DNA of 64,000 nt from Draconibacterium sp. (lineage in GTDB: Bacteria; Bacteroidota; Bacteroidia; Bacteroidales; Prolixibacteraceae), in contig JBFXFM010000021.1 of NCBI GenBank assembly GCA_050179035.1, positions 12 through 64,011 of the forward strand, in the 5' to 3' direction. The position numbers were made by a program, and so were the translations under genes. Positions 34,023-55,486 of this stretch are shown here, one piece after another (within the stretch, counting starts at the first letter, position 1; each line of letters opens with the position of its first letter). Under the pieces are notes generated by a model. That model ran no database searches. It saw only the letters and a program-made list of their open reading frames with translations, and was not told the DNA's origin.

Positions 34023-34080
34023 TAAAAGTATGCCTACACTATTAAACCAGAATTACAGAAATATTACAGTTTTATTACAT
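34023..34080 (-). promoter_or_regulatory. Candidate Pho box (4 repeats, 11-bp period) + -7 element
   Basis: Plus strand from 34041: ATTAAACCAGA ATTACAGAAAT ATTACAGTTTT ATTACAT (TTA at 34042/53/64/75); TACTTTTA on the minus strand at 34023-34030. Confidence 0.7.
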
Positions 34081-34550
34081 TATTTTTCTTCTACATATTT
34101 TCGTTCGCTGATGAGATTTCCCAAGTCATCGTATTTTTTCCAGGTGCCGCTTTTTTCTCCATTAGTGTATTCAAGCTCATACAAAAGAACTCCGCTGTCA
34201 TTCCAGATTTTCCAATGGCCGTGTTTCTGGCCGTCCTTGTACCCTGCAACAGAAACTTTAATATTTTTATTGTTGTACATTTCCCAGGTTCCATCCATCA
34301 GGTTGTTTTTATATGAACGGATTTCGTTTATCTGGCCATTTTCGAAGTAGATTTTTACAACGCCCTCTTTTTTACCTTCAGTAATTTTCATTTCCATTTT
34401 TACCTGACCATTTTCGTAACTGGTTTTGTAGGTACCGGTGTATAGCGAATTGTTGAGGTAAAATAATCCGTCGGTTTCTTTTATATCTTGTGCATCGACC
34501 AGCGAAACCGCTAATAAAATAAGGCCAATTACGAATACAAATTTTTTCAT
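34080..34550 (-). CDS. Exported MORN-repeat (YwqK-like) protein
   Basis: Signal peptide; repeated G..K.YYENGQ / G.W..Y...G motifs; likely start 34550. Confidence 0.85.
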   Translation of the reverse strand: MKKFVFVIGLILLAVSLVDAQDIKETDGLFYLNNSLYTGTYKTSYENGQVKMEMKITEGKKEGVVKIYFENGQINEIRSYKNNLMDGTWEMYNNKNIKVSVAGYKDGQKHGHWKIWNDSGVLLYELEYTNGEKSGTWKKYDDLGNLISERKYVEEK

Positions 34551-34610
34551 TTTTTCATTTTTTTCGTATAACAAAGTAAACGTATTTTTTGAATTTAAGG
34601 TTTTAAAATA

Positions 34611-34638
34611 AGGCTCCGGGCAAAGTTGCCCGGAACCT
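34611..34638 (-). terminator. Hairpin downstream of TBDR-1
   Basis: AGGCTCCGGGCAA-AG-TTGCCCGGAACCT. Confidence 0.65.
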
Positions 34639-34676
34639 TCAAGCTGGTAAAAATCACCAACCTGTCATCACTAATT

Positions 34677-37601
34677 TTAATTTATCCTGTATGATAATGA
34701 GACGGTGTAGGTACGTCCCAGTTCGTATTGCTGGTATAAATAATCGTTGTTGTTGTATTTAACAGCTTTTTTAAATGCCGAATCGAGGATGTTGTTTACT
34801 TTAAATCCGAGGGTAAAATTGCGTAATACAGTTTTTGTAATGTTAAAATTCATCATTCCTTCGGTCGATTCATAAATGTCGGGTGTATCAATATTTGTCT
34901 CGGTCATCCGATCGCCAAATTTGTTGTAATCGAGTGTCGAGTTTAACCCTATTTCGGAATTTGAGTAGCTTAAATTTACATTTACAAGGTATGGCGACTG
35001 GCCAGGGAATGGTCTGGTTTTTTTAACCTCCCAGCCGTTGTTGGCAGCAGTTTCCTGTTCAAATTTGTTCACATCAACTTTCGAATCGATGAATGAAAAA
35101 TTGAGACCAAAACTAAAATCACGCAAACCATCAGCAATAAAATCGAGGTTTTTACGCGCTTCTAATTCAATTCCGGCAAGCTTACCTGTTTCGGAATTCT
35201 GATATTGAATTTGAGGATTTGGAACTTCGATAAGGTATTGCAGTACAATGGGGTTACTAAATTGTTTGTAATATGCGCTAACCGCAAACAACTCGCCAGG
35301 CCTTACAAACCATTCCCAACGGAGGTCGTAATTATTGATTTCGGTTCGTTTAAGGTTTGGGTTACCATTGTAAATTACACCACCAATAAAGTCGAACGAA
35401 GCAAAAGGCGCAAGTTCCCGCAGGTTGGGACGGGCAATGGTTTTACTGGCCGATGCTCTTACATTCATCGTTTCGGATAGTGCAAACACCAGGTTTACCG
35501 AGGGCAGCAGGTCTTTTTCATCAATTTCTCCTTCATAGTCGGCCAGATTCTCATCCGGAATGTATGAGAGCGCCACTACTTTTTCTCTGGGTTGCAGTTT
35601 CACTGACATGTAGGTGGTTTCGTAACGGGCTCCTACAATTGCCTTGAATTTTGGAGTGAAGTTGTAGGTTACCATTGCATACAAGGCATTAATATCGGTG
35701 GTTCCGAGATAATTGTTCTGATGTTTGGTTTGGTTGTACAAATAGTTGCCAATAATGTTTCTGTCTCTGGAATCAACTCCGATTATCCCTGTATTTGCAG
35801 GTCCGAAGTATTGATCTGAATTTCCGCCATAAGAAGTTCCTTTGTCGCGTTCGTACTGGTAAATGGTTTCAAAGAAATTACGCTCTTTGGTTGAATAAAG
35901 TCCGCCAAGCTTTATTTTGTTTGAACTGTTTTTTGATTGAAGAAATGGAATTGTGATGTCAATTTTTCCCTGTAACTGTTCGTCTTTTAATTCGCGCCAG
36001 AAATGAAAAGGCATATCGTATTCAGCCCTCGACATATAATATCCTGTGGTGTCATTATTTTCATCAAGTCGGTATGAGTTGGCGAAAAGCCGCATATCGG
36101 GTTCGTATTGTTTTGAAACGATTTTACTCCCACTGTAATCAATGCGGGTATTGTTCAGTCCCACGAAATTATGGTGTCCACTGATTTTGCCCATCTGCAT
36201 TTCGCGTTCGGTAAAACTCAGTGAGCGGGTTTGGAAGCGGGTATCGCCCGAAAGTGCAGCGGGGAAAACCCCATCCTGAAAACGTGCTGACTTCTCTGCA
36301 TCGTGGTTGTATGAATAGTTGATTTCAACTGAACCATTGTTGCTGTATTTAAAAGCCAATGTTGAAAGCCCGGTAATTTGCGGATTCTCGGTGGCTTTGG
36401 TGTCGTTCAGTATATAGTTTTCGCCCAATGCTTCAGCTCCGGCCTGAACAAGTTCCCAGTTGGCCGAAACGCCATCGCGGTAGTACGAAAAATTGCGGCG
36501 GTAATTTACACCCATAACAAAACCAATTTGTTTGTTGCGAAATACCTGCCATTGGTTACCAATTGAAAAAGCCACTTTCTGGTCGAGTGGGGCTGTCATT
36601 TCGGAGGGTGACATTTGAGAATTTACCGAACGGGCTGCATCATGGAGCAATGCTGCTTCATTTGGATATTTATCGCCCTGACGTGCTTTAATGTAGAGGT
36701 TTGTTGTTAACTCCCCGCCTCTGTCAACCAAAATACCCGGAATGTTGCGATATCCTTTGTCGTATCCAAGCCAATCGGTATTCGAACCCTGATAGGTTAA
36801 AAAGTCATTGTTAAAAGTTGATTGGTCGTTGTAGGCAGTGGAGATTTCAAAATTAAGCGTGAATTGTTCGGGGAAAGCTTTGGTTTTGATGTTCACATTT
36901 CCGCCGGTAAACGAACCAGGTAAGTCGGGAGTAAAAGTTTTTGAGGTGATAATGTTTTCGAGCAGGTTAGCAGGAATCAGGTCGAGGTCAGCAGAATTTT
37001 TATACGGATCAGTTCCGGGCAACTGCTGACCGTCCATTTGTACGCTTGAATAACGGTCGCCGAGTCCGCGAACAAATATGTCTTTGCCATTCATTACCGA
37101 AACGCCGGTAACTTTTATCATCGATTCGGCAGCATTCGAGCTTCCGAATCTTTTCATCTCAATCGAAGAAATCCCATCCTGTATTCCTTCAGCTTTTTTT
37201 TGCATGCTTAAAATGGCATTTTCGCTGTTGGTTAATTGTTTGGCCGTAATGGTAACTTCTGCAATTTCTTCAGTAGCTGGTGCCAACTGAATATTCATAA
37301 CTGTTACATCGCCGGGTTTTACTTCAATCCCTGAAATAGTTTGTGGTGCATACGAGATGTAACTAAAAACAAGAGTTACCATTCCTGAGGGCAGGTTTGG
37401 CAAGGTAAAATTACCATCGAAATCGGTAATTGTACCCGTTGTGGTTCCTTCAATAATAATGTTTACACCAATTAGGGTTTCCCCCGATTTTGCATCTGTA
37501 ATGGTGCCTCGAACAGTTCCTTTGTCTTGCGAAAATATGTTTTGTGATGACAGAAAGATGAAGAAAAGGATACTGAGAATTTTTACCAACTGTGTTTTCA
37601 T
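34677..37601 (-). CDS. TonB-dependent receptor (TBDR-1), no adjacent SusD
   Basis: 974 aa; signal, NTE domain, plug FVRGLGDRY..DLIPANLLENII..KTFTPDLPG.FTGGNVNIKT; C-terminal SLSYRIN. Confidence 0.95.
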   Translation of the reverse strand: MKTQLVKILSILFFIFLSSQNIFSQDKGTVRGTITDAKSGETLIGVNIIIEGTTTGTITDFDGNFTLPNLPSGMVTLVFSYISYAPQTISGIEVKPGDVTVMNIQLAPATEEIAEVTITAKQLTNSENAILSMQKKAEGIQDGISSIEMKRFGSSNAAESMIKVTGVSVMNGKDIFVRGLGDRYSSVQMDGQQLPGTDPYKNSADLDLIPANLLENIITSKTFTPDLPGSFTGGNVNIKTKAFPEQFTLNFEISTAYNDQSTFNNDFLTYQGSNTDWLGYDKGYRNIPGILVDRGGELTTNLYIKARQGDKYPNEAALLHDAARSVNSQMSPSEMTAPLDQKVAFSIGNQWQVFRNKQIGFVMGVNYRRNFSYYRDGVSANWELVQAGAEALGENYILNDTKATENPQITGLSTLAFKYSNNGSVEINYSYNHDAEKSARFQDGVFPAALSGDTRFQTRSLSFTEREMQMGKISGHHNFVGLNNTRIDYSGSKIVSKQYEPDMRLFANSYRLDENNDTTGYYMSRAEYDMPFHFWRELKDEQLQGKIDITIPFLQSKNSSNKIKLGGLYSTKERNFFETIYQYERDKGTSYGGNSDQYFGPANTGIIGVDSRDRNIIGNYLYNQTKHQNNYLGTTDINALYAMVTYNFTPKFKAIVGARYETTYMSVKLQPREKVVALSYIPDENLADYEGEIDEKDLLPSVNLVFALSETMNVRASASKTIARPNLRELAPFASFDFIGGVIYNGNPNLKRTEINNYDLRWEWFVRPGELFAVSAYYKQFSNPIVLQYLIEVPNPQIQYQNSETGKLAGIELEARKNLDFIADGLRDFSFGLNFSFIDSKVDVNKFEQETAANNGWEVKKTRPFPGQSPYLVNVNLSYSNSEIGLNSTLDYNKFGDRMTETNIDTPDIYESTEGMMNFNITKTVLRNFTLGFKVNNILDSAFKKAVKYNNNDYLYQQYELGRTYTVSLSYRIN

Positions 37602-37681: not shown

Positions 37682-40651
37682 TTATCTCACAATCATTTTG
37701 TTTACTGCTTTATTTTCACCGGCGTTGAGCTGGTAGAGATAAATACCTCTTTGCAAACCTGAAACATTAACCTTGTAAGTTCCTTTCTGCTGAGTTTCGC
37801 TTATCACCGATTTTACAATTTTACCTGTAACATCATAAACCATCAGGCTTACATTGGCCATTTCAGGAATGGTATATTCAATGGTTGTGGTTCCGTCAAA
37901 AGGATTCGGATAGTTTTGTTTCAATTCAAAACTGTTAATCCCCATTTCGTTAACCGAAACGTACAATTCGCCAAAATAGCCCATATTATCCAGAGCAGTC
38001 CACATTTTAGCCCAGTTTTCATGGCCAAACGCTCCTTTGTAAGCTGTTTCCTCTAATCCTGTGGTTACAAAAGCACCGGTAATCGGAGCTACATTTTCCC
38101 AGGCTGAACTTTGCGGATTCGGACGTGGGTCGAGTTTTCCATCGGCTTCGCGCGAAATTCCCGATATCATTGGGTTTGCTATGGTATTTGCGTTAGCAGT
38201 TAAGTGGTTAACAAGAAAAGCGCCTGTTACATCTTCGGCATCGCTTGTAACCTGAATCATTTTACCGGCAGCAAGTTCGTCGCCAGCACCAAAACCAAAC
38301 CAGATGTTATTTTTGAAAACGAGGTCGCCGTTTTCCATGTGTTTGCGTGAGTCGGTTCCTTTGTCGGCAGCGCGGTCTTCCACTTCAATAGCGCTGAAAG
38401 CAAATTCAGTAAAAATTGAGTTGGCATACATACCACCTGCTCCATCGCGCAACATTAAAGCCACGTCGCCTACATTTGAAGCGGTTCCCGGGCCAATGTA
38501 AGTAGCATTGAAAATTGTAGGTTTTGCAAATCTTGGGTTATCATCGGGGTGAGCGCCATCGTGTTCGCCACCTGAGCCTGCATCGTCAGTACCCTGAATT
38601 GCAAACCAGAACTGGCCACCGCCTCTCCATCCGTCGTCATAATCAAAAGCATCGTCGCCACAGAAAGCAGCAATGAGGTATTTTGTCATTACAGTACCAC
38701 CCCAGAATTCGAAACCATCATCAGAGTTGGCAAACACTTCCACGTTTTCGATTACGGTCTGGCTGCCAACACCGGCAACCGACAAACCGTTGATTTCGTT
38801 ACCTGGCGAGAGTTCAGCACCACCGTGGCGTATTGAAACATATTTGAAAACTCCTGTATTGTGAGTATCGTCGTCTCCGCCAAATTTGGCACGTTCTTCA
38901 CCAGCAGGGATACCTTCAATTGCAGATTCGGCAGCGGTGAACCCGATAACGCCTTTACCCAGAAGGATAACACCACCCCAAAGACCTCGGTCTTCGTGGG
39001 TTAAATCAGCAGGGTCGGTTAAATCATCATCTTCGGCAGTGAAGATAATCGGGAGTTCAGCAGTACCTTCGGCCATAATTTTGGCATCGCGTGTAATAAT
39101 CAGTGCCGAAGCATTGTCACCGGTTGTAGGTGTTGCTTTGGCTTTGATAACCGTTCCGGCATCAATTGTTAAAGTACCCGATTCGAGGAAAACAAAACCA
39201 TCGAGCAGGTAAGTTTTGTCTGCTGTCCAGTGTGCATCACCGGTTAAGGTAGCGTCGGTAACCAATACTTCAGTTCCGCCGGCAGAGAAATCAAGATCCC
39301 CGAAATAACCCATTTTATCAAGTGCTGTCCAACCAAGCGCCCAGTTGGTTGAGCCAAAGGCTCCCCTGTAACTTGTGCTCATTATATTTTCATTGTCTGA
39401 AGAAGCAGAGCCGCTCCATGCCGGACTGCCGGCTGCAAGTCTTGGGTCGAGCTGACCATTAGCTTCACGGCTGATTCCGCGGAATTTTGGGTTTGCTATG
39501 GTATTTGCGTTAGCAGTTAAGTGGTTAACAAGAAAAGCGCCTGTTACATCTTCGGCATCGCTTGTAACCTGAATCATTTTACCGGCAGCAAGTTCGTCGC
39601 CAGCACCAAAACCAAACCAGATGTTATTTTTGAAAACGAGGTCGCCGTTTTCCATGTGTTTGCGTGAGTCGGTTCCTTTGTCGGCAGCGCGGTCTTCCAC
39701 TTCAATAGCGCTGAAAGCAAATTCAGTAAAAATTGAGTTGGCATACATACCACCTGCTCCATCGCGCAACATTAAAGCCACGTCGCCTACATTTGAAGCG
39801 GTTCCCGGGCCAATGTAAGTAGCATTGAAAATTGTAGGTTTTGCAAATCTTGGGTTATCATCGGGGTGAGCGCCATCGTGTTCGCCACCTGAGCCTGCAT
39901 CGTCAGTACCCTGAATTGCAAACCAGAACTGGCCACCGCCTCTCCATCCGTCGTCATAATCAAAAGCATCGTCGCCACAGAAAGCAGCAATGAGGTATTT
40001 TGTCATTACAGTACCACCCCAGAATTCGAAACCATCATCAGAGTTGGCAAACACTTCCACGTTTTCGATTACGGTCTGGCTGCCAACACCGGCAACCGAC
40101 AAACCGTTGATTTCGTTACCTGGCGAGAGTTCAGCACCACCGTGGCGTATTGAAACATATTTGAAAACTCCTGTATTGTGAGTATCGTCGTCTCCGCCAA
40201 ATTTGGCACGTTCTTCACCAGCAGGGATACCTTCAATTGCAGATTCGGCAGCGGTGAACCCGATAACGCCTTTACCCAGAAGGATAACACCACCCCAAAG
40301 ACCTCGGTCTTCGTGGGTTAAATCAGCAGGGTCGGTTAAATCATCATCTTCGGCAGTGAAGATAATCGGGAGTTCAGCAGTACCTTCGGCCATAATTTTG
40401 GCATCGCGTGTAATAATCAGTGCCGAAGCATTGTCACCGGTTGTAGGTGTTGCTTTGGCTTTGATAACCGTTCCGGCATCAATTGTTAAAGTACCCGATT
40501 CGAGGAAAACAAAACCATCGAGCAGGTAAGTTTTGTCTGCTGTCCAGTGTGCATCACCGGTTAAGGTGGCATCGGTAACAGTTATTATGGTTTGTGCATT
40601 CATTGCAAAAGCCATAATAAGAAAGGAAATCATTAAAGTAAATTTTCTCAT
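37682..40651 (-). CDS. T9SS-secreted protein 1: two tandem beta-helix-like domains + type-A CTD
   Basis: 989 aa; signal peptide; duplicated ~439-aa unit (TLTIDAGT, NEINGLSVAGVGSQT, DDGFEFWGG, DDAFDYDDG); CTD QNYPNPF..YDVTGK..GIYLYQL..KMIVR. Confidence 0.92.
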   Translation of the reverse strand: MRKFTLMISFLIMAFAMNAQTIITVTDATLTGDAHWTADKTYLLDGFVFLESGTLTIDAGTVIKAKATPTTGDNASALIITRDAKIMAEGTAELPIIFTAEDDDLTDPADLTHEDRGLWGGVILLGKGVIGFTAAESAIEGIPAGEERAKFGGDDDTHNTGVFKYVSIRHGGAELSPGNEINGLSVAGVGSQTVIENVEVFANSDDGFEFWGGTVMTKYLIAAFCGDDAFDYDDGWRGGGQFWFAIQGTDDAGSGGEHDGAHPDDNPRFAKPTIFNATYIGPGTASNVGDVALMLRDGAGGMYANSIFTEFAFSAIEVEDRAADKGTDSRKHMENGDLVFKNNIWFGFGAGDELAAGKMIQVTSDAEDVTGAFLVNHLTANANTIANPKFRGISREANGQLDPRLAAGSPAWSGSASSDNENIMSTSYRGAFGSTNWALGWTALDKMGYFGDLDFSAGGTEVLVTDATLTGDAHWTADKTYLLDGFVFLESGTLTIDAGTVIKAKATPTTGDNASALIITRDAKIMAEGTAELPIIFTAEDDDLTDPADLTHEDRGLWGGVILLGKGVIGFTAAESAIEGIPAGEERAKFGGDDDTHNTGVFKYVSIRHGGAELSPGNEINGLSVAGVGSQTVIENVEVFANSDDGFEFWGGTVMTKYLIAAFCGDDAFDYDDGWRGGGQFWFAIQGTDDAGSGGEHDGAHPDDNPRFAKPTIFNATYIGPGTASNVGDVALMLRDGAGGMYANSIFTEFAFSAIEVEDRAADKGTDSRKHMENGDLVFKNNIWFGFGAGDELAAGKMIQVTSDAEDVTGAFLVNHLTANANTIANPMISGISREADGKLDPRPNPQSSAWENVAPITGAFVTTGLEETAYKGAFGHENWAKMWTALDNMGYFGELYVSVNEMGINSFELKQNYPNPFDGTTTIEYTIPEMANVSLMVYDVTGKIVKSVISETQQKGTYKVNVSGLQRGIYLYQLNAGENKAVNKMIVR
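38170..39250. repeat. Copy B of the 1081-bp intragenic direct repeat
   Basis: Offset 1317 bp from copy A; six pairs of shadow ORFs in different frames translate identically; boundaries read by eye. Confidence 0.92.
39487..40567. repeat. Copy A of the 1081-bp intragenic direct repeat
   Basis: Matches 38170-39250; first mismatches at 39486/38169 and 40568/39251. Confidence 0.92.
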
Positions 40652-40692: not shown

Positions 40693-40750
40693 CGAAAAAA
40701 AGGTATTAATATTACAAGGGGGTTAATATTAATTTAAGGACTTGTTACAT
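40693..40750 (-). promoter_or_regulatory. Candidate Pho box (4 repeats, 11-bp period) for the T9SS-1/TBDR-1 operon
   Basis: Plus strand from 40711: ATTACAAGGGG GTTAATATTAA TTTAAGGACTT GTTACAT (TTA at 40712/23/34/45); degenerate -7 element TTTTTTCG. Confidence 0.65.
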
Positions 40751-40890
40751 TAGATTAATAAAAATGTAACAATTATAAAAATGTAATAGTAACAGCGTTT
40801 TCAGCTCTTGAGTATAGAAGCAATGGTGTTAACTAAATTTGACGTGTTAATGTTAACTTAAGAAACCGTAGTGCGATATTTAGGTTGGAG

Positions 40891-42651
40891 CTACCTTTTT
40901 GCCAGCGTAAACAGGAACTCGACACCACCGGTTTCGCGGTTACGCACCGAGATATCGCCTTTGTGCAACTGAACTGCGTTTTTTACGATAGCCAGCCCCA
41001 GTCCGGTTCCTCCGGCTTCGCGGGTGCGGCCATGGTCAACCCGGTAAAACCTTTCAAAAATCCGCGAAAGGTGTTCTTCCGGAATTCCGGCGCCCGTGTC
41101 GGAATACGAGAAATAGTAGTATTTATCGTCTTCGTGATAAACTTTTATCTGTATAGAAATTCCTTTTCCACCGTAATTGATCGAGTTTTCCACAAGGTTT
41201 TGGAAAACCGAGAAAAGCAGCGATTCGTTACCATTTATAATTGTATTTTCAGGGATTTCGGTTGTAAATCTGATGTTTTTTTCATCAATCCGGTTGGCAA
41301 AATTCTGGTAAACTTCTTCGATGAGGGTTTTCAAATCAGTTAGTTTAAACCTGAAAAGTTCTCCCGCGTCTTCAATGTTTGTCAGCAACGAAACATCGTT
41401 TATCAGGTGGGTGAGGCGCTGCGACTGCAAGTATGCTTTTTCAAGAAAATAGCGTTGTTTTTCAGCCGAAACAGGCCTGTTTTCCAATATTGTCTCAAGA
41501 TATCCTTTAATTGACGCCAACGGAGTTTTCAACTCGTGGGCAATGTTCGAAGTGAGTTGCTGTTTCATCAGCCTTCGCTTTTCGAGCCGGGTGATATCTG
41601 TAATCACGACTTCGAAACTAAGGTCGGGGAAAATGATGCTTTGTACTTTTAGAAATTTTTCGCCTTTTGAAATAGTAAACTCCGACTGTTGCAGATTTTC
41701 TGACGAACTGTTGGTAATTGACGGATTTTCTACAAACCGGGTTAGTTCGGCAAACTCTTCCATTTTGAAAATGTGCTCGGGTACAGTAACTTTTTTGTCG
41801 GATATCGAATTGAGGTACTGAATAAAATAGCGGTTCGAAAGTGTTTTTTGTTTTCCGGGCGAAAAGAAAGCGATGCCTTCGTTTAGCGCATTCAGATGGC
41901 TTAGCAGTTTTTCGCGTTCGGTGGCCAACTCGTCCTTGGTTTTTTTCAGGTCACTATAAATAGCAATAATTTGCGAACCAATCGTTCCCAGTTCGTTACC
42001 CGGAAATTCGGTAACCGTGTCAATCTGTTCTTTTTTACCAGCTTTTACTGCAAAATCGCGGAGCTTTGTAATGGCGTCGGCCATACGCGAAGTAATGAAA
42101 AACAATACAATACCAATAATGGAAAATGCAGCTACAATAAAAAAGATGTAATATCGCTCCGTCTTCAGAAAATTCTGGACCTGAACGTCGTAAACAACCG
42201 CTGTACGTACAAAAAAGTGACTGTATTTTTTGGCGTAATAGTAATAAACTTCATTTGTTGTATCCGAGAGGCGGATATTGGCTCCTGATTTGTGTTTAAA
42301 GGCTTTGTCAATTTCAGGTCGGTGGAGGTGGTTTTCCATGGTTCGGTAATTCTCAACCGAACTGTCGAAAATTACTTCGCCATTCAGCATAATAACAGTA
42401 ATTCTCAGGTGTTCCTGCGGAATTATTTCCTTTAATCCCGTAATGCGACTCATTTGGTTTTGTCTAACCAAATCGTTCTTTTCAATAAATAAAGCGGTGA
42501 TTTCGGTAATATTATCGAGCGTATTTTCCAACTGCCGGGTGCGGAATTTTTTCTCGCGTTCGTACTGAAATGCCAGCACGGATGCCGTAAACAAAAAGAA
42601 AACCACAATGTAGTAGAGAAAAATTTTTCCCCTGAAGGAATTTGAATTCAC
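40891..42651 (-). CDS. PhoR-like sensor histidine kinase
   Basis: 586 aa; two TMs; TSNIAHELKTPLASIKGYLET, NLVENSINY, DTGAGIP..RIFERFYRVD..R.REAGGTGLGL. Confidence 0.9.
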   Translation of the reverse strand: MNSNSFRGKIFLYYIVVFFLFTASVLAFQYEREKKFRTRQLENTLDNITEITALFIEKNDLVRQNQMSRITGLKEIIPQEHLRITVIMLNGEVIFDSSVENYRTMENHLHRPEIDKAFKHKSGANIRLSDTTNEVYYYYAKKYSHFFVRTAVVYDVQVQNFLKTERYYIFFIVAAFSIIGIVLFFITSRMADAITKLRDFAVKAGKKEQIDTVTEFPGNELGTIGSQIIAIYSDLKKTKDELATEREKLLSHLNALNEGIAFFSPGKQKTLSNRYFIQYLNSISDKKVTVPEHIFKMEEFAELTRFVENPSITNSSSENLQQSEFTISKGEKFLKVQSIIFPDLSFEVVITDITRLEKRRLMKQQLTSNIAHELKTPLASIKGYLETILENRPVSAEKQRYFLEKAYLQSQRLTHLINDVSLLTNIEDAGELFRFKLTDLKTLIEEVYQNFANRIDEKNIRFTTEIPENTIINGNESLLFSVFQNLVENSINYGGKGISIQIKVYHEDDKYYYFSYSDTGAGIPEEHLSRIFERFYRVDHGRTREAGGTGLGLAIVKNAVQLHKGDISVRNRETGGVEFLFTLAKR

Positions 42652-43490: not shown

Positions 43491-43555
43491 TATAAGTAGA
43501 GCAAAGTTGTTACAATCCGGTCACTAAATTATTAAATATTATTAATTTATATTTG
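43491..43555. promoter_or_regulatory. Divergent phoBR/porin promoter region with a candidate Pho box
   Basis: GTTACAATCCG GTCACTAAATT ATTAAAT from 43509 (11-bp period); perfect TATATTTG on the plus strand at 43548-43555; weak TACTTATA on the minus strand at 43491-43498. Confidence 0.55.
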
Positions 43556-46352: not shown

Positions 46353-46410
46353 CAAAAGCAGCGAAAATCAGATTAATGTTTGGTAAACAATGGGTTAAAA
46401 AAATGTTACG
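46353..46410 (-). promoter_or_regulatory. Candidate Pho box for the 45898-46308 gene
   Basis: ATTAATGTTTG GTAAACAATGG GTTAAAAAAAT GTTACG from 46372; TGCTTTTG -7 element on the minus strand at 46353-46360. Confidence 0.55.
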
Positions 46411-47259: not shown

Positions 47260-48393
47260 TTATTGTTCCAGATTCAACACTTTTGCAATTTCTGCCCACG
47301 AAATGTATTTGTAGTTCTGGCTTTTCTTTTTCCTTCCGTCGTAATTAAAACCATCCTGCACCACCAGCATTCCCTGCGGAAATCCGGGCAAAGCAACCGT
47401 GGTAATATCCAATCCGTCGGTTTCTTCAACACCATCAACAACTCCATCAGTAATCCTGAAACTGCCCAGATATTTGTTTTCTCCCTGCCGTTCGAAAACT
47501 GCGTACGAAAAGTTTCCCTGCGATGAGGCTACCAGGTAGCCATTTAGACTGTCGGTTGCATAAATCGCCAGTCCTTCAATATCGTATTTTATATTCAGAT
47601 TTTCTTCGGAGCTTTTTTGTATGAATTTCCCCTCGGTTGAACCCTCGGGTTCGGCGTCAAATTTCCAAATTCCGGCCTGTTCTTCACCGATGTAAAGGAT
47701 TCCGGTTTCGTCGTCGGCTACCATTCCTTCGGTTTGGGTGCCAATTTTCAGTGAGCGAACCAGTTTTGCATCAACTTTATTTTCGGCAGCAAAAAGTTCG
47801 TATTGTTCCACTTCGCCCGATTTGCCGTTTACAAAAACATAAAACAGCCCGGTTTTTTTACTTCGGTACATGCACAAACCATACACTTCGTCGCTCATGG
47901 CCGATTTGATAATACGGTTGTGTACCGAGTCGAGCCCACCATTTTCAACTATTCTGAAAAGTGAAACCGATTGCATGGTACGGTTGCTGGCAGCGAGAAT
48001 ATCGATGGTGTCGCCATTCAGCGGAAAACCGTAACGCAGGTCGCAATTGTTCATATCGCCGGTGGCGTAATAGTTGAGTTGTTTTCCGGTTAAATCGTAA
48101 GTTGCGAGTCCGCCTTTTTTATCGGTCCCGATAATTACTGATTTTTCAGGGTTTTGAGGATGAATCCAAATTGCCGGGTCATCAGCCGAATCGTCGTTTT
48201 TTCCGCGCGGTGTTGGTTCGGTTTCAATACTTGCGGCAACCAGATTCTTAATGTGTTCGCCTGCTTTGCGCGAGCCTTCGCCAGGGCGGTTACACGAATT
48301 AAATGTTATCAAAACAAACAGCCCGATAAACAGGCTGGTTGTTCCAGGGAATATTTTCATTTCTTTCATCGGTATTTTTGAATCAATTTTCAT
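47260..48393 (-). CDS. Beta-propeller phytase (3-phytase), lipoprotein
   Basis: DSADDPAIWIHP, IIGTDKKGGL, MNNCDLR, YGLCMY, TQTEGMVAD, YIGEE..GIWK, DIEGL, ETDGLD, VVQDG; lipobox FNSC; the true start may lie ~33 bp inside the ORF. Confidence 0.93.
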   Translation of the reverse strand: MKIDSKIPMKEMKIFPGTTSLFIGLFVLITFNSCNRPGEGSRKAGEHIKNLVAASIETEPTPRGKNDDSADDPAIWIHPQNPEKSVIIGTDKKGGLATYDLTGKQLNYYATGDMNNCDLRYGFPLNGDTIDILAASNRTMQSVSLFRIVENGGLDSVHNRIIKSAMSDEVYGLCMYRSKKTGLFYVFVNGKSGEVEQYELFAAENKVDAKLVRSLKIGTQTEGMVADDETGILYIGEEQAGIWKFDAEPEGSTEGKFIQKSSEENLNIKYDIEGLAIYATDSLNGYLVASSQGNFSYAVFERQGENKYLGSFRITDGVVDGVEETDGLDITTVALPGFPQGMLVVQDGFNYDGRKKKSQNYKYISWAEIAKVLNLEQ

Positions 48394-48400
48394 AAGTATT

Positions 48401-51274
48401 TTAAAAATTGAGTTTTAAACCAACCCGTGCCCACCAGGAGTAATATTCCTGTTGCAAAAGTTTATCGGGCGTACCCAGGTAGTATTTTAACGGGGCGTTT
48501 GTGAGATTTATTACATCGACAAAAACATTCAGATTTTTTGTGATTGAATAATTCGTTGTAAAATCGAAATGCCAGGCTTTATCGTAGTATTCATCCAAAT
48601 CGCTGTCGGCACCCAGTTCGTGTAAAAAGGCATCGTGATAATTGGCCGTAATTTTTGCATAAAACTTTTTGGTTTCGTAGAAAAGTGCAAGATTGGCTGT
48701 GTGTTTTGCCTGCCCCGGAAGCATTATTTTTTCCTTTTCGCCGTTTTCGTCAAAAAATACGCTCAAATCATCTTCACCAAAAATCACAACAGCGTCGCTG
48801 TAATTGGCCGGGTAGCGCTGGCTGATGTAAGCTTCTGAGAATGTGTAAGTATAGTTGGTATAAATTCCAAAGTTTTTCAGAAAGTTATCGAAAAAGAAAA
48901 GTTTCGACTGGTATTGCAACTCGGCGCCATATACAAAAGCATCGCGTCCGTTGGCTGCAATGGTAATTTCGTCGAGCGAGGTTCCGGTTGAAGCGTCGCT
49001 TTGGTGTGCAAACCGTTTAAAATAAAAGATAAAGTCGTCAATCTGTTTATAGAAAAAGCCCCCTGAAAGTAAGCCTTGTTCGCCAAAATAGGTTTCGCCA
49101 AGCAAATCGAAATTGATGGCTGTCGGGTATTTCAGGTCGGGGTTTCCAAAGGTGTATTGGTCGTTGTCTTTCTCTTCCTTGTAAGGCAACACATCTTTAA
49201 AATTGGGGCGCGAGTAGGTTCGTGTAACAGCAGCCCTGAAGTTTGTATTCTTATTCAAACTATATCTTACCTGCAATTGCGGTAGCAGAAACTGGTGCGA
49301 ACGCTGGTCGTTCAATGTGTCGAGCCGTACAAATTTCTTCCCGTCGGCAATTACATTGTGTCCGGTGTAGTTGATGTTGGTTTTTTCGAACCTCAACCCA
49401 CCCAACAACATCAGGTTGTTGAAGTTGTGTTTTATCATTCCGTAAGCCGCATAAATATCTTCGTTTGCGGTATAGTCAGCACCGTAAGATTCCTGTCGGG
49501 TTCTGGTGGGATCATACACAAACTGGTGCCTGTTGTATTCGTAAAAATCGCGCACTTTTTCGGGCGAAGGCATAGCTTCAATTACATAACCATGATTCAG
49601 CAGGTTGGGGTCGGTAAAACCATCACTCACACCGTAAAGCGTAAGCGGTTCAGCCACGCCGGGGTACGGATTTACTAATTTTGAATAAGGATATCCACCG
49701 TAAACCTGCGAGTTGTCGTCGCGGCTTTTATCTTTCATCCGTACTTTTCCCCCAAATTTGAAACTTCCGTTGCGGTAAGGTATTTCAAGATTCAGTTTTG
49801 CTGTTACATTGATGTCTTTGATGATGTTGTTTTCGAGCTGTAGTCCGTCAAATTCATATTTTGCATAATCAGTAACCAACTGCTCATCGCCTTCGGTAGG
49901 GTAACTAATGGTGGGCCAGTTGGGGTCGGTTAAATCAAATTTCATCATCACGCCGTGCCCCGGACTGTCGAACCCGGTTTCGAGACGGGTGGGGTCTTTT
50001 TCCGATGAATAGGCATAAGCAATTTCGTAATCGATTTTTGTTTTTCCCAGGTTGTGCATACCGCCGAGGTTCAGGGTGTAAATCTCCTGAACCTGCCGTG
50101 TATCGCGAATATCGTGCGCCACCGAGCAGTCGCGGTAAAGTGTTTCACTGATGGCATCGGAGGTTTCGTAAGTTATTCTGCGCCGCAGTTCCTGGTCGGT
50201 AAAACTGTTAAACATTCCGCGAAGGTAAACCGATGAACCTTCGTTAAAGATGTAGTCCATGGTTGTGCTCACGCCAATACGGGTGCGCGTAATATCGTAA
50301 TGTCGAAGTTCCATTTTCTTGTACTGCACCTTGTAATTGTCGATGCTGTCGCCCTGACTTCCCCAAAACGGACCTTTTATATAATTGAATTCCATGTTAT
50401 CGGAGCCCAGGTTGTTTTTGTAATAACTGCTGTTGAGGTAAAATCCGAATTTGCCGTAACGTGCGCCGTATGAAAACTGCACCTGGTAGTTTTCGGTTTG
50501 TCTCAGGTTGTTGTACCCCCCTGAAATTGCAGCCGAAATATCTGGTTTCTGGTCGAGCGCTTTTTTGGTAACAATGTTCACATTTCCGCCAATTCCATCA
50601 GCGTCCATATCGGGGGTTAGCACTTTGGTAATTTCAACAAATTCAATCTGGTCAGCCGAAATTACATCGAGACCAACATAACGCACATCGCCTTCGGGCG
50701 AAGGAATTTGTTCGCCGTTGATGTTAAAGTTGGTAAGCTCCGGCGGGGTTCCGCGGAGTTGTACAAAACGACCTTCTCCCTGGTCGCGCTGCAAGGTAAT
50801 TCCGGGGATTCGCTGAATAACTTCAGCCGCATTCATGTCAGGGAATTTCTCGATTTGTTCAGAAGAAACTATGTTTTTGATGTTTTCAGCTAATTTCTGG
50901 TCGAGCAGGGCTTTTTGCTGACCGCGTGCCAGCGCAGTTATATTAATTTGACCGATTTCCTGTGTTGACGGGTCGAGTGCGATTTTCAGGTTTTTAAGCA
51001 GAGGTTCTGAAAAACTTACCGGAACCACTTTCGTTTGATAACCCATAAACGAAACCAGCAGCGTTACCTGTCTGGATTTTATTCCTGTTAATTCGAAAAA
51101 ACCGTTGTTGTCGGTGATGGTTCCGTGGGTTGTATTTTCAACAACAATCCCTGCACCGGGCAGGGCTTCGTTGGTGGTGGCATCGGTAATAATTCCCGAA
51201 ACCGAATAATTCTGGGCAGCTAATTGTGTGGTTAGAATAAATGAGAAAAGGAAGACAAGGATTTTAGGCTTCAT
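48401..51274 (-). CDS. TonB-dependent receptor (TBDR-2, phytase-associated type), no adjacent SusD
   Basis: 957 aa; NTE; plug PDMNAAEVIQRIPGI.LQRDQGEGRFVQLRG..DADGIGGNVN; C-terminal GLKLNF. Confidence 0.95.
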   Translation of the reverse strand: MKPKILVFLFSFILTTQLAAQNYSVSGIITDATTNEALPGAGIVVENTTHGTITDNNGFFELTGIKSRQVTLLVSFMGYQTKVVPVSFSEPLLKNLKIALDPSTQEIGQINITALARGQQKALLDQKLAENIKNIVSSEQIEKFPDMNAAEVIQRIPGITLQRDQGEGRFVQLRGTPPELTNFNINGEQIPSPEGDVRYVGLDVISADQIEFVEITKVLTPDMDADGIGGNVNIVTKKALDQKPDISAAISGGYNNLRQTENYQVQFSYGARYGKFGFYLNSSYYKNNLGSDNMEFNYIKGPFWGSQGDSIDNYKVQYKKMELRHYDITRTRIGVSTTMDYIFNEGSSVYLRGMFNSFTDQELRRRITYETSDAISETLYRDCSVAHDIRDTRQVQEIYTLNLGGMHNLGKTKIDYEIAYAYSSEKDPTRLETGFDSPGHGVMMKFDLTDPNWPTISYPTEGDEQLVTDYAKYEFDGLQLENNIIKDINVTAKLNLEIPYRNGSFKFGGKVRMKDKSRDDNSQVYGGYPYSKLVNPYPGVAEPLTLYGVSDGFTDPNLLNHGYVIEAMPSPEKVRDFYEYNRHQFVYDPTRTRQESYGADYTANEDIYAAYGMIKHNFNNLMLLGGLRFEKTNINYTGHNVIADGKKFVRLDTLNDQRSHQFLLPQLQVRYSLNKNTNFRAAVTRTYSRPNFKDVLPYKEEKDNDQYTFGNPDLKYPTAINFDLLGETYFGEQGLLSGGFFYKQIDDFIFYFKRFAHQSDASTGTSLDEITIAANGRDAFVYGAELQYQSKLFFFDNFLKNFGIYTNYTYTFSEAYISQRYPANYSDAVVIFGEDDLSVFFDENGEKEKIMLPGQAKHTANLALFYETKKFYAKITANYHDAFLHELGADSDLDEYYDKAWHFDFTTNYSITKNLNVFVDVINLTNAPLKYYLGTPDKLLQQEYYSWWARVGLKLNF

Positions 51275-51374: not shown

Positions 51375-53009
51375 CTAATTAATAATGATTTTCCGGGTTA
51401 CTGAACCGGTTTCGCCAGTAAAACGAATAAAGAAAATGCCTTTGTTTATTGCACTTACATCGATGGTTTGCCTTGTCGATTCAACCAACCCGCGCTGCAC
51501 GGTTTTGCCTGTAATATCGTGAATGCTGAATGTTTCAAAACGGTTTTCTGACAAATCAAAATTCAGTTTTCCGTTGTTCACAGGATTTGGATAAACGTTA
51601 ACCACGGGTTCGGCGCCGATTTGTTCTTTAACCGCATTTGTGCCCGATTTGTAATAAACCACTAATTGCGGAACACGCTCGGGGTGGTTCTGTCCGTCGC
51701 CGCCATCTTCCGGGTCGGCAATATTTTCGAACGATTCCAACTCGCGTGCATTTTCAGCTTCGCTCACGCCCTGGTTTTCACCTTCCATGATAAAAGCTAT
51801 GGCATTTCCCGAATTCCAGCCCTGTAATCCGATGATTTCCTGAACCACCGATTTGATATCCGCAGTGCGGTGTTTTGTGTAAAGTCCCCATTCTTCGGCA
51901 ACTTCCCAGCGTACCGAGGCTGAAGTTTTTGGTCTGTCGGTAATTAAAGCTTCCATGCTAAATGTTTCGGGGTTAGCATTTTTTTCGCCACGGATGGTGA
52001 TGTTGGCTTCATCAGTTGCCGATTTTCCTTCGTGCGAGTGGATTACAATATATGCCGAATCGATGGTAGCATCAGCAGGAATGGTGATTCCGCGGAAACG
52101 TAACCCAAGGTTTACAATGTTGATTGTACTGGCATCCACATATTCATACCCAATATCAAGGTCGTCATCATACAAATCGTCCATTTCATCGTTCTCCTGT
52201 TCGGCATCGTCTGATGATACATTGATAACCACACCTTCTTCCATGATGGTGTCGGTTTTCTGAATATAAACTTCCAGTTTTTCGTTGTCGGTTGTGCCTG
52301 CCGGTTCAGAATAATACACCACCAATTGCGGAACGCGCTCGGGGTGGTTCTGTCCGTCGCCTCCATCTTCGGGGTCGGCAATATTTTCGAACGATTCAAG
52401 TTCGCGTGCATTTTCGGCTTCGCTCACACCCTGGTTTTCGCCTTCAAGAATAAATGAGATGGCATTTCCTGAATTCCATCCGCTCAAACCAATTATTTCC
52501 TGAACCACCGATTTGATATCAGGTGTGCGGTGTTTTGTGTAAAGTCCCCATTCTTCGGCAATTTCCCAGCGTACCGAGGCTGAAGTTTTTGGCCGGTCGG
52601 TAATAAGCGCTTCCATAGTAAATGTTTCGGGGTTGGCATTTTTTTCGCCTTTTATTGTGATGTTGGCCACATCGGTGGCCGATTTTCCTTCGTGAGAGTG
52701 GATTACAATAAATGCCGAATCGATTGTTGCACCTGCCGGAATTGTAATTCCAAGGAAACGCATCCCAAGGTTTACAATGTTTATTTCGCTTGCATCAACA
52801 TATTCATAACCAATGTCGAGGTCGTCGTCAAACAAGTCGTCCATTGCATCGTTTTCCTGCTCTGCATCGTCAGACGAAACATTGATTACCACACCTTCTT
52901 CCATAATGGTGTCGGTTTTCTGAATGTAAACTTCCAGTTTCTTGTTTTGCGCAAAAACTGAAGTGGTAAAAAACAAAAGGAATAAGGAATAAAGTAGAGT
53001 TGATTTCAT
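51375..53009 (-). CDS. T9SS-secreted protein 2: two tandem acidic ~220-aa domains + type-A CTD
   Basis: 544 aa; signal peptide; units offset by 660 bp (SSDDAEQEND..DDDLDIG..LG.RF.GITIP..ATIDSA..WNSGNAI); CTD VYPNPV..DITGK..KIIIN. Confidence 0.9.
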   Translation of the reverse strand: MKSTLLYSLFLLFFTTSVFAQNKKLEVYIQKTDTIMEEGVVINVSSDDAEQENDAMDDLFDDDLDIGYEYVDASEINIVNLGMRFLGITIPAGATIDSAFIVIHSHEGKSATDVANITIKGEKNANPETFTMEALITDRPKTSASVRWEIAEEWGLYTKHRTPDIKSVVQEIIGLSGWNSGNAISFILEGENQGVSEAENARELESFENIADPEDGGDGQNHPERVPQLVVYYSEPAGTTDNEKLEVYIQKTDTIMEEGVVINVSSDDAEQENDEMDDLYDDDLDIGYEYVDASTINIVNLGLRFRGITIPADATIDSAYIVIHSHEGKSATDEANITIRGEKNANPETFSMEALITDRPKTSASVRWEVAEEWGLYTKHRTADIKSVVQEIIGLQGWNSGNAIAFIMEGENQGVSEAENARELESFENIADPEDGGDGQNHPERVPQLVVYYKSGTNAVKEQIGAEPVVNVYPNPVNNGKLNFDLSENRFETFSIHDITGKTVQRGLVESTRQTIDVSAINKGIFFIRFTGETGSVTRKIIIN

Positions 53010-53034: not shown

Positions 53035-53092
53035 CAAGATTAACAAGTGGCATTTAAACGCAGGTTACAATCAGATTAAGTGAATGTTACAG
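53035..53092 (-). promoter_or_regulatory. Candidate Pho box (4 repeats, 11-bp period) for the T9SS-2/TBDR-2/phytase operon
   Basis: TTTAAACGCAG GTTACAATCAG ATTAAGTGAAT GTTACAG from 53053; TAATCTTG -7 element on the minus strand at 53035-53042. Confidence 0.7.
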
Positions 53093-53188: not shown

Positions 53189-53563
53189 TTACGCAAATAC
53201 TGTCTCTTTTCTGCTTCCGGCCATTCGGTTAATATGTACCTGCGCTTCAGCATAACTATCGATATTGCGCAGCGATTTGGTAATTTTTATGCGGGTTTCG
53301 GGCCTGTCAACCATTTCCCTGAAATCGTCGAGGCAAATTTCGATACTGCTGTACCTGTAAATCTGGCCGGTTTCAAAATCATAGCTAAAATCTTCAAGTT
53401 CAGCAAAAACAAATTCAAGCCCTGTATTATGAAAGTTGATTTCGTAAAAACGGGCATAAACAAGCGATATACTTCCATCGGGCATTCCGTAAAAATAAAC
53501 GGGGAGTGCTGTATGAAAATAGGTCATGTTCGACTTATAAATTAAAACGGGTTTTGTGCTCAT
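53189..53563 (-). CDS. Hypothetical cytoplasmic protein, paralog of 45898-46308
   Basis: MSTKPVLIYKSNMTYFHTALPVYFYGMPDG; last gene of the plcP-like/GT operon; start 53563 or 53569. Confidence 0.8.
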   Translation of the reverse strand: MSTKPVLIYKSNMTYFHTALPVYFYGMPDGSISLVYARFYEINFHNTGLEFVFAELEDFSYDFETGQIYRYSSIEICLDDFREMVDRPETRIKITKSLRNIDSYAEAQVHINRMAGSRKETVFA

Positions 53564-53580
53564 ATTCATTCAATTAAAGG

Positions 53581-54567
53581 TTAAATGGTGTTACGCATAA
53601 TTATTTTTTCGATGATTTCGTTGGTTCTGTCGGGGAAATCAATTTTCAGCGGCTGTATGTTTTCGAGCCAAAGCCTGATTTTGGCTACATCTTCAGAGAG
53701 GTCGTTTAAAACCTGAACTCCCATTTCGCGCAGGAAAGCTGCATTGCATTGTTGTTCGTACTGGTTTTTCATCGGAATCACACAAAGTTTTTTCCCCATG
53801 TGAAGGGCTTCGGCCGGGGTTTCAAAACCGGCATTACAAAGAATCCCGCTGCAACTGATAAACGACTCGTGAAATTTTTCGATTGAAACGGGTTGAAAAT
53901 GAATATTTTGTTTGCTGTATGATTTTTGGCTGTGTTTCGAAAAAACTTCCCACTGTACCTGTGGAAATGCGCCTAAAACCCTTTCAATCTCTTCGTTACT
54001 GTACGATGGCAAATAAACCGAGTAGTGGTTGTTTGTGGAGTGATTTGCGTTTCGGATTGCAGTTCGGATTACCGGGCTGAAATTGAAGCTGTCGAGCTGA
54101 TTAAAATGAAACCCATATTTTAGCGAAACCGGCGCATAATTTCGGAGAATAAATTTTCCCAGTGCATCATGTTTTTCAGGTTTTGGAGTGGCGTTGTGCA
54201 AAACCGCATTCTGATGACTAAGCCCGATGCACTTTTTGCCCTTAATTTTGCAGGCCCAAGCCGAAACAGGTTCAAAATCGCTGATAACCAGGTCGTATTT
54301 TTGTACTGGCAATTTTATCAAATCAACAAGAAACCTGGGTAACCTTGACTTTGCAATTGTTTTTTTTAAATCAACACCGCCGGTTGTACCAAAAATAAAA
54401 CTCACGCCATAAAACCTGTATTTTACTTCGAACGGGAGTTGAATATCACCCTGAATTCCACTGACGAGCACGTCAGTTTCGGCCATTTTCTGCAGAACAG
54501 GAACGATTTCGGTTGCCCTCGCCAAATGCCCGTTGCCGGTTCCCTGAATTGCGTACAATACTTTCAT
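53581..54567 (-). CDS. GT-B glycosyltransferase (MJ1255/VC2487-like, related to GT28/MGDG synthase)
   Basis: MKVLYAIQGTGNGHLARA, VISDFEPVSAWA, NAGFETPAEAL..GKKLCVIPMKNQYEQ. Confidence 0.88.
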   Translation of the reverse strand: MKVLYAIQGTGNGHLARATEIVPVLQKMAETDVLVSGIQGDIQLPFEVKYRFYGVSFIFGTTGGVDLKKTIAKSRLPRFLVDLIKLPVQKYDLVISDFEPVSAWACKIKGKKCIGLSHQNAVLHNATPKPEKHDALGKFILRNYAPVSLKYGFHFNQLDSFNFSPVIRTAIRNANHSTNNHYSVYLPSYSNEEIERVLGAFPQVQWEVFSKHSQKSYSKQNIHFQPVSIEKFHESFISCSGILCNAGFETPAEALHMGKKLCVIPMKNQYEQQCNAAFLREMGVQVLNDLSEDVAKIRLWLENIQPLKIDFPDRTNEIIEKIIMRNTI

Positions 54568-54570
54568 TTT

Positions 54571-55407
54571 TTACAATATGTTGGTAAAAACAAGTTCTTT
54601 AATCAACGATTGGTATAACTGTCGTCCTTCGGGAATATCAGGTTCGTCATTGGGAAATTCGTCGTCGTTTTCGGTGTGGTAAAAAAGTTTCCATTCTTTT
54701 GAATCGTATTCGGCTGCGGTAAAATTTTCAACCCAGTCGCCGCAATTCAGGTATTTAATGGTTTTGCCATTTATAATCAGCTCTTTTTCTTTTGGGATGT
54801 GGGTGTGCCCGCAAATCACCGATTGATAGCCCTGCGTTTCGGCCACTTCGCCAATTTTCTTCTCAAAAACCGAAGGTTCGGGTTTTTCGCGGAGCCAACG
54901 TTTTTTAATACTCCGGTAAAAGATGATTTCGTTTTTTCCAAAAAGCCTTAAAAACGGCTGAAGTGCGTTGTTCAGCCACGAAAGCAATCCGTACGAAGCC
55001 GCCCCGATTTTGGCTAACCATTTTGTTTCGTGAATCACAAGGTCGAAAATATCGCCATGAAAAATCCAGGTCTTCTGGCCATCAAGGTCCAATACCAACT
55101 GGTTTACAATGCGCAGGTTTCCAATCTGAATTTTTTCAAACTTCCGTAAAAATTCATCGTGATTACCTGTAATGTAATAAACCTGAACCCCTCTTTCCAT
55201 CATTTTAATCAGCTGCCTGATTACTTTGAGGTGGGCTTTGGGGAAAAAATTTCGCGAAAACCGCCACGAATCAATGATGTCGCCGTTTAAGACAAGGGTT
55301 TTGGGTTGTATCGATTTCAGGTATTTTAAAACCTTTTTGGGGTGACAGGCGTGTGTGGCAAGATGAATATCGGATATTACAGCCACTTCCGGTTCTCTTA
55401 TCTTCAT
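54571..55407 (-). CDS. PlcP/LpxH-like metallophosphoesterase
   Basis: VISDIHL, NGDIIDSW, GNHDE, FHGD.FD.V....KWLA, CGHTH, YLNCGDWVE; likely start 55407. Confidence 0.88.
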   Translation of the reverse strand: MKIREPEVAVISDIHLATHACHPKKVLKYLKSIQPKTLVLNGDIIDSWRFSRNFFPKAHLKVIRQLIKMMERGVQVYYITGNHDEFLRKFEKIQIGNLRIVNQLVLDLDGQKTWIFHGDIFDLVIHETKWLAKIGAASYGLLSWLNNALQPFLRLFGKNEIIFYRSIKKRWLREKPEPSVFEKKIGEVAETQGYQSVICGHTHIPKEKELIINGKTIKYLNCGDWVENFTAAEYDSKEWKLFYHTENDDEFPNDEPDIPEGRQLYQSLIKELVFTNIL

Positions 55408-55428
55408 AGTTAATTCACTATAATGCTG

Positions 55429-55486
55429 CAAATTAGGCTGATTGTTATTAATCTACAGTTACAGTTCAGTTACGATAAAAATAAAG
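55429..55486 (-). promoter_or_regulatory. Candidate Pho box for the plcP-like/GT/hypothetical operon
   Basis: ATTAATCTACA GTTACAGTTCA GTTACGATAAA AATAAAG from 55447; CTAATTTG -7 element on the minus strand at 55429-55436. Confidence 0.65.

Follow-up and report, generated by a model that had tools for sequence, protein, structure and literature searches.

The DNA analysed here, a 64,000-nucleotide stretch of Draconibacterium sp. contig JBFXFM010000021.1 (the window), carries a phosphorus-acquisition island at about 31.6-55.5 kb in which six promoters contain arrays of short direct repeats with a period of exactly 11 bp. The window has a G+C content of 42% and is most closely related to Draconibacterium, Mariniphaga and Maribellus (Prolixibacteraceae); the identity of its response regulator reaches 95%, with that of a Draconibacterium metagenome-assembled genome (MAG). 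The window sequence was found in DNA metagenomes only, with a landfill metagenome as the best match over nearly its whole length. For transport and regulation the island encodes PHO4/Pit, PhoU_div, two TonB-dependent receptors, a porin-like protein and a two-component pair, and its enzymes are a beta-propeller phytase and a PlcP-like metallophosphoesterase with a glycosyltransferase. It also encodes a small CarbopepD_reg protein, a MORN protein, DUF3124, two paralogous orphan small proteins, two internally duplicated proteins with type IX secretion system (T9SS) sorting tails, and a lipoprotein (44587-45897) related to the larger of the T9SS-tail proteins.

The two-component pair lies on the minus strand. 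The product of phoB (42667-43353) matches NCBIfam NF053854 with 316.9 bits (cut-off 270) and that of phoR (40891-42651) matches NF053855 with 673 bits (cut-off 500), which places both above the Bacteroidota equivalog cut-offs. PhoB is the single OmpR-type regulator encoded in the window, and the pair is presumed to be the cognate regulatory system of the arrays; a sequence search of PDB with this regulator did not discriminate among members of the OmpR family.

Each of the six promoters has three or four direct repeats of (C/T)(G/T)TAA(C/T)A at exact 11-bp spacing and at a fixed distance from a -7 box. Read along the minus strand, as the genes run, each unit is (T)GTAA or TTAA and then C or T; five of the six arrays have minus-strand genes downstream, and at site C the minus-strand gene is phoB. 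From the KTAA half-site (K, G or T) to the TA of the -7 box there are 11 nt, or 12 nt at site D, and the box itself, TAnnTTTG upstream of the start codon, is recognisable at D, E and F.

Array A (34042-34078, half-sites at 34042/53/64/75, K positions 34078, 34067, 34056 and 34045, minus strand) consists of four exact units, TGTAAT/TGTAAT/TGTAAT/TTTAAT. Its degenerate -7-like box TACTTTTA (34023-34030, minus strand) lies 11 nt after the proximal TTAA, and the predicted target is the small CarbopepD_reg gene at 33643-33993 (minus strand, ATG at 33993). Array B (40712-40748, half-sites at 40712/23/34/45, minus strand) also has four exact units, TGTAAC/CTTAAA/ATTAAC/TGTAAT, and a degenerate -7 region TTTTTTCG (40693-40700, minus strand). 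As judged from short gaps and a shared strand, promoter B probably serves an operon of a 989-aa T9SS-tail protein (37682-40651) and a TonB-dependent receptor (34677-37601), which perhaps extends to the MORN gene at 34080-34574. An orthologue of array B is present in one related locus (L056). Array C (43510-43546, half-sites at 43510/21/32 and a fourth unit at 43543, minus strand) reads ATTAAT/TTTAAT/AGTGAC/TGTAAC towards phoB, and its degenerate -7-like box TACTTATA (43491-43498, minus strand) precedes the phoB start codon (ATG at 43353) by about 135 nt.

Array D (46373-46409, half-sites at 46373/84/95/406, minus strand) reads CGTAAC/TTTAAC/GTTTAC/ATTAAT, has a recognisable -7-like box TGCTTTTG (46353-46360, minus strand) behind a spacer that is 1 nt longer, and is predicted to drive the gene of an orphan 136-aa protein (45898-46308, minus strand, ATG at 46308). 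The four exact units of array E (53054-53090, half-sites at 53054/65/76/87, minus strand), TGTAAC/CTTAAT/TGTAAC/TTTAAA, are accompanied by a recognisable -7 box TAATCTTG (53035-53042, minus strand) and precede a probable operon of a T9SS-tail protein (51375-53009), a TonB-dependent receptor (48401-51274) and the beta-propeller phytase (47260-48393). Array F (55448-55484, half-sites at 55448/59/70 and a degenerate TTAT unit at 55481, minus strand), TTATT/CGTAAC/TGTAAC/ATTAAT, has the recognisable -7 box CTAATTTG (55429-55436, minus strand) and probably belongs to an operon of the PlcP-like metallophosphoesterase (54571-55407), the glycosyltransferase (53581-54567) and an orphan 126-aa protein (53189-53569). 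An earlier note on this DNA had reported the arrays and read them as sites of the local PhoB-like activator. Every half-site coordinate in it is correct, as are its -7-like boxes at 34023-34030, 53035-53042, 55429-55436 and 46353-46360, and the half-sites that it had set in parentheses in C and D reflect the one mismatching unit of each array (GTGA in C, TTTA in D).

These arrays are far more frequent than chance would give. The pattern KTAA-N7-KTAA-N7-KTAA has seven matches in the window, at loci A, B, E and F, compared with 0.28 expected, and none of 100 dinucleotide shuffles reaches seven. All exact KTAA triples are on the minus strand, inside the island and co-oriented with the genes. Periods of 7-10 and 12-15 give 0-1 triple arrays in the window, and quadruple KTAA arrays are absent from it at these periods. 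Allowing up to one mismatch in three KTAAY units (Y, C or T) gives 13 matches compared with 0.64 expected and adds C and D. The note's consensus (G/T)TAA(C/T) agrees with the phylum-wide profile described below and is borne out in the window by C or T after TAA in 20 of 23 units.

We also scored the window with a 60-column weight matrix whose training set consisted only of relatives' loci (L001-L080). Sites A to F are the six best scores in the whole 64 kb, at 37.9, 30.8, 31.4, 19.4, 24.2 and 25.4, respectively, and the best scores of shuffled windows average 15.7 with a maximum of 23.2. No site in the window outside 34,000-55,500 scores above 17. The note's observation that arrays occur only in the island thus holds for this window, yet the motif itself is general to Bacteroidota Pho promoters.

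The comparison set comprised about 280 related loci, of which 80 surround phoB homologues (64-95% identity), all from Prolixibacteraceae and together 1.3 Mb. In these 80 loci three successive KTAA units occur 337 times at period 11 as opposed to 2-16 times at periods 7-10 and 12-16, and four successive units 117 times as opposed to 0-3 times at other periods. Four units make up the array in 118 cases and three in 105. When the arrays are aligned on the proximal unit, each unit has the profile T-K-T-A-A-Y, or YKTAAYA plus four variable positions, and there is no further unit downstream of the proximal one; in the four-unit arrays it is mostly TGTAA (95 of 115). Across the relatives, a clear TAnnTTTG(C) profile starts 15 nt after the proximal K, with TA enriched at +15/+16 and TTTG at +19 in 86 of 219 arrays (+18 in 5, +20 in 1); secondary peaks of TTTG at +30 and +8 correspond to a register shift of one unit. 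TGTAAY is separated from the TA of the -7 box by 10 bp, and the next ATG follows the proximal unit at a median distance of 69 nt. Promoters of Bacteroides and Flavobacterium follow a spacing rule for a -33 element. Here, no TTTG stands at the -33 position, some 19-21 bp before the -7 box, and the KTAAY of the third unit occupies this place, which fits an activator-dependent promoter.

The genes that follow the arrays in the phoB loci are phoB (44), TonB receptors (38 and 3), small CarbopepD_reg genes (32), PlcP-like genes (11), lipoprotein genes (9), orphan proteins (9) and a 756-aa PHO4 transporter (8), and genes for PstS and a PhoU-like protein also follow arrays. Array D, although marginal on score, is kept upstream of homologues with 46-94% amino acid identity in five loci (L001, L004, L024, L025 and L059), some of them only 46-49% identical. 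The three good units and the degenerate TTATT of array F are kept in 10 related loci. Upstream of phoB, the relatives' counterpart of array C reads ATTAAT.. TTAAT.. GTAAnC.. GTAACA.. followed by TAnTTATA, so that the third unit, GTGA in the window, is GTAA in relatives.

Were these Pho boxes, pstS would be expected to have them, and as an independent test of this prediction the matrix was applied to a set of 80 loci picked by PstS homology alone, from Prolixibacteraceae, Marinilabiliaceae and other Bacteroidales. We scanned 2.5 kb upstream and counted co-oriented sites with a score of at least 20. An array of this kind precedes pstS or a porin-pstS pair in 72 of the 80 loci, at a distance of 50-180 nt from pstS in some and of about 1.06-1.36 kb in the others, where it stands immediately before a porin gene of about 328 codons. 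The opposite strand of the same upstream regions gave 0/80 and the plus strand downstream gave 0/80. The upstream sequence is truncated in four of the eight loci in which no array was found. A scan of only 350 nt upstream finds 22/80, the remainder being porin-pstS pairs, in which the array precedes the porin and lies about 1.1 kb upstream.

Finally, a scan of the whole collection for four KTAA-N7 units followed by N15 and TTTG matched at least 120 stretches, with taxa taken from record titles. Among the 120 matches listed, 92 are from Bacteroidota (Chitinophagaceae, Flavobacteriales, Sphingobacteriales, Cytophagales and Bacteroidales including Prevotella, Alistipes and Bacteroides), 9 are from Ignavibacteria or Chlorobi-like organisms and 19 are from other taxa, several of which may be mis-binned Bacteroidales contigs (see below). 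We assigned 61 of the listed arrays to a Pho class, with genes downstream for TonB receptors, porin331-like, Porin_O_P and OprP-like proteins, PHO4/PiT, PstS, a Na/Pi cotransporter (NptA), PhoU_div, PlcP-like proteins and a lipoprotein, and with phoB-phoR following the array in Alistipes. The unit of this class is [C/T][G/T]TAA[C/T]A; its second position is G in 52%, TAA is followed by C or T in 95%, and TA is found at +15/+16 in 31 of the 61 arrays though the search pattern did not impose it.

A second class, with 19 arrays among the matches listed, has the unit TTTTAA[G/T] and never G before TAA. Its four-unit arrays share the 11-bp period and the distance to TTTG with the Pho class, and they precede genes for OEP/TolC-like efflux, DabA, SulP and an unknown protein in Chryseobacterium, Pedobacter, Sphingobacterium, Dyadobacter and others (L083, L097, L156, L194, L110, L197, L145, L184, L192, L096, L103, L179, L099, L187, L108, L129, L140, L143 and L149). 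Many of these loci carry an OmpR-type regulator that is 28-37% identical to the window PhoB, and the arrays are probably the operators of other two-component regulons. Since the loose pattern of four KTAA units also catches this class, it is unfit on its own as a predictor of PhoB sites.

Taken together, these observations make it very probable that the arrays of the window are Pho boxes, that is, operators for the phosphorylated PhoB encoded at 42667-43353. All computational tests that we ran support the note's reading, while binding by PhoB, activation and the phosphate signal are what we infer from the DNA. In the mechanism that we propose, phosphate limitation would lead PhoR to phosphorylate PhoB, and a single 11-bp unit, (C/T)(G/T)TAA(C/T)A plus four variable bases, would take one PhoB DNA-binding domain. 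With four head-to-tail units, two PhoB dimers would thus be bound side by side on the same helix face. As 10 bp lie between the end of the proximal unit and TAnnTTTG, the array would cover the usual place of the -33 TTTG, so that the two dimers would replace the -33 contact. The 10-bp spacing and the third unit at the -33 place suggest that these promoters depend on PhoB for the recruitment of RNA polymerase, comparable to class-II-type activation at the Pho promoters of E. coli. The predicted targets would be phoBR itself, two operons of a T9SS-secreted protein and a TonB-dependent receptor (one of them with the phytase), the operon of the PlcP-like phospholipase and glycosyltransferase, the small CarbopepD_reg gene and the orphan small-protein gene.

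Several observations weigh against this interpretation. The -7 boxes are degenerate at three of the six promoters (A TACTTTTA, B TTTTTTCG and C TACTTATA), and site D, at 19.4, lies inside the range of the best shuffled-window scores and is marginal on score alone. Not all operons of the island fit, as the plus-strand operon 43581-45897 and PhoU_div-Pit have no canonical array. TTAA is palindromic, hence arrays of TTAA units only give no orientation by themselves. In addition, the link to the experiments on Flavobacterium johnsoniae and Bacteroides fragilis discussed below would run through gene content and family membership.

The arrays could instead be operators of another OmpR-family regulator encoded elsewhere in the genome, with PhoB binding something else. 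Period-11 KTAA arrays of the same geometry do serve other regulons, those with TTTTAA(G/T) units before OEP, DabA and SulP genes and near other OmpR-type regulators, and only 64 kb of the genome are in view. However, the YKTAAY class is distinct from the TTTTAA(G/T) class, its arrays co-occur with phoBR and precede phoB as well as the pstS operons in 72/80 loci, and the window has no second OmpR-type regulator, all of which makes a foreign regulator improbable. We consider it similarly unlikely that PhoB binds the arrays mainly as a repressor or in mixed roles, for instance by occluding the plus-strand promoter (43548-43555) that diverges from phoB. In favour of such roles, there is overlap between the arrays and the core promoter region, the perfect TATATTTG box of the opposite-strand gene 43581 directly adjoins array C at its distal unit, and in F. 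johnsoniae the porin gene beside phoBR was not induced by phosphate depletion while its neighbours were (PMC8115612). Yet the array replaces the -33 element rather than overlapping it, at a rigid distance to the -7 box as for an activator that contacts the polymerase; target genes are induced by phosphate starvation in other Bacteroidota (PMC8115612, PMC3547664), and boxes of the same design in E. coli and Synechocystis activate.

A purely compositional origin of the periodicity, through AT-rich promoter DNA, intrinsic curvature or chance and with no dedicated protein, could draw on the AT-richness of the intergenic regions and on TTAA being a common word. The numbers leave it next to no room: there are 7 matches for 0.28 expected, the period is exactly 11 and not 10-10.5, its excess over other periods is at least 20-fold in 1.3 Mb, and the arrays are strand- and gene-specific and absent from the other promoters of the window. 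The period-11 counts, the shuffles and the pstS test effectively refute this explanation.

The arrays appear to be a Pho box of the mechanistic kind that would be expected, newly delineated for Bacteroidota. In Bacillus subtilis the PhoP box is TT(A/T/C)ACA with 11-bp periodicity, and four repeats (two dimers) form the activation core; the sigma-A promoters of Firmicutes have -35 and -10 elements, unlike the promoters described here. Known Pho boxes are 11-bp direct repeats of seven conserved and four variable bases on which head-to-tail dimers contact sigma (PMC4415409), and in E. coli 10 bp separate them from the -10 element downstream (PMC1906773). The E. coli design thus shares with ours the 11-bp repeats, the head-to-tail dimers, the 10 bp to the downstream element and the replacement of the upstream element, often with two boxes and so four units, and its regulon likewise includes pstS, a porin and phoBR (PMC4415409, PMC1906773). 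The core differs, CTGTCAT in E. coli and YKTAAYA here, and so does the partner element, which in E. coli is the -10 with the -35 replaced but here is the Bacteroidota -7 TAnnTTTG with the -33 TTTG replaced; by analogy, the sigma contacted would be the primary sigma of Bacteroidota.

The SphR box of Synechocystis, which needs at least three tandem CTTAACCT 8-bp repeats with 3-bp linkers, comes close, with a near-identical unit (CTTAAC), the 11-bp period and the requirement for at least three units (PMC1906773). It belongs to another phylum and promoter type, however, and G and T are freely interchanged at the second position of the Bacteroidota units. For PhoP of Streptomyces coelicolor, direct repeat units of 11 nt that vary in number and quality between operators are likewise described, but with the GC-rich core GTTCACC and more variable operator structures (PMC4415409; see also PMC2275107). 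Within Bacteroidota, the phoBR cluster of F. johnsoniae is induced by phosphate depletion and is similar in make-up to the island, with a glycosyltransferase, porin, PhoR, PhoB, TonB transporter and lipoproteins (PMC8115612), and PhoB of B. fragilis (BF1576) shifts a 512-bp fragment of the pst promoter (PMC3547664). The regulators of both organisms share their NCBIfam family with the window pair, and neither report defines a binding motif. We found no description of a Bacteroidota Pho-box consensus in the open literature; subscription journals were outside this search, and earlier descriptions are possible.

We lean towards the broader view that this is an undescribed Pho box and promoter architecture of the whole Bacteroidota (in the sense of the Genome Taxonomy Database, GTDB, including Ignavibacteria and Chlorobi-like organisms), one that is rigid, predicts the regulon, adds unannotated members to it and has a geometry reused elsewhere. 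The proposed phylum-wide architecture would consist of four YKTAAYA units at 11 bp, 10 bp, and TAnnTTTG, and would lack a -33 element. In soils, the sea and the gut, Bacteroidota play a major part in the mineralisation of organic phosphorus, and compared with proteobacterial Pho regulons theirs add TonB-dependent systems, T9SS exoproteins and lipid remodelling. If the broader view is correct, the orphan small-protein family, the duplicated T9SS-secreted proteins and the small CarbopepD_reg protein would be Pho members so far unannotated, and the geometry would be reused by one or more further OmpR-type regulons, as with the TTTTAA(G/T) units. A rule of fixed geometry would make the Pho regulon readable from any Bacteroidota genome or metagenome bin and would assign unknown genes to the phosphate response, and it would offer a compact phosphate-responsive promoter design for the genetics of Bacteroides and Flavobacterium. 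Because the mechanism is the expected one, this value is practical and not conceptual.

Site C lies between divergent genes, and its conservation upstream of phoB in relatives indicates that it is an autoregulatory site of phoBR and not the promoter of the plus-strand gene at 43581. Arrays upstream of 43581 in close relatives were considered as separate sites and rejected, as what matches there is the phoB array itself, whose palindromic TTAA units also appear on the other strand; many of the apparent array matches before the relatives' porin gene are these same palindromes on the opposite strand. The plus-strand operon 43581-45897 has a perfect -7 box, TATATTTG (43548-43555, plus strand), which abuts the distal unit of array C. 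Its promoter has neither a -33 TTTG nor a canonical array of its own orientation in the window. The first gene of this operon (43581-44576) is homologous to the 'FKPxGKP' porin family of about 328 aa, which has no Pfam match and is likely the phosphate porin of Marinilabiliales. In that order pstS is usually the second gene behind this porin and the Pho box stands before the porin, as in most of L202-L279.

The PhoU_div-Pit promoter (33408-33642) was rejected as a site, having only two in-register TTAA units and an inverted match with one mismatch at 33528-33554. Just upstream of these TTAA units, a G+C-rich hairpin with a T-run (AGCCGCGCAGTAACTGCAGCGGCTGTTTTGTTTT, minus strand, about 33590-33625) resembles a terminator for the small CarbopepD_reg gene, and transcription from promoter A probably does not continue into phoU_div-pit. 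In the interval from phoR to array B, extra plus-strand GTAAC/GTAAT words occur at 40744-40790; they are not in 11-bp register and were rejected as an array. An inverted repeat in the same region, TGTTACAT...ATGTAACA, overlaps the distal unit of array B, and the words and the repeat may represent a phoR terminator or auxiliary half-sites.

Five loci labelled Clostridium, Lachnospiraceae, Dysosmobacter or 'bacterium' (L127, L136, L163, L190 and L200) have Pho-type arrays and a Prevotella-like 750-aa PHO4, and two of them (L136 and L200) have PhoB/PhoR homologues that are 45-50% identical to those of the window. From this PHO4 gene and these homologues, the five are probably Bacteroidales contigs mis-binned into MAGs of Firmicutes.

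Both T9SS-tail proteins (37682-40651 and 51375-53009) are internal tandem duplications. The repeats of the former are 1317 nt apart and 94% identical over the reported 300-nt repeat, and its two protein copies of about 439 aa look almost identical, which could be due to a recent event or an assembly artefact; the repeats of the latter are 660 nt apart and 88% identical. The repeat unit of 37682-40651 is homologous to the lipoprotein 44587-45897. The PlcP and glycosyltransferase pair is a known lipid remodelling system of phosphate starvation (PMC4796936), and by analogy the PlcP-like and glycosyltransferase operon of the window fits that system. The orphan small proteins at 53189-53569 and 45898-46308 (both minus strand) are cytoplasmic paralogues, 40% identical, without a match in Pfam or NCBIfam, and their family is small, with 39 clusters in a set of 5.8 billion proteins. 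AlphaFold gives a confident model (pLDDT 88, pTM 0.83) of a beta-sheet and two helices, which no fold in PDB matches at E <= 0.001. In relatives, the genes of these small proteins carry Pho-type arrays of their own, which suggests that they are an unannotated family of the Pho regulon.

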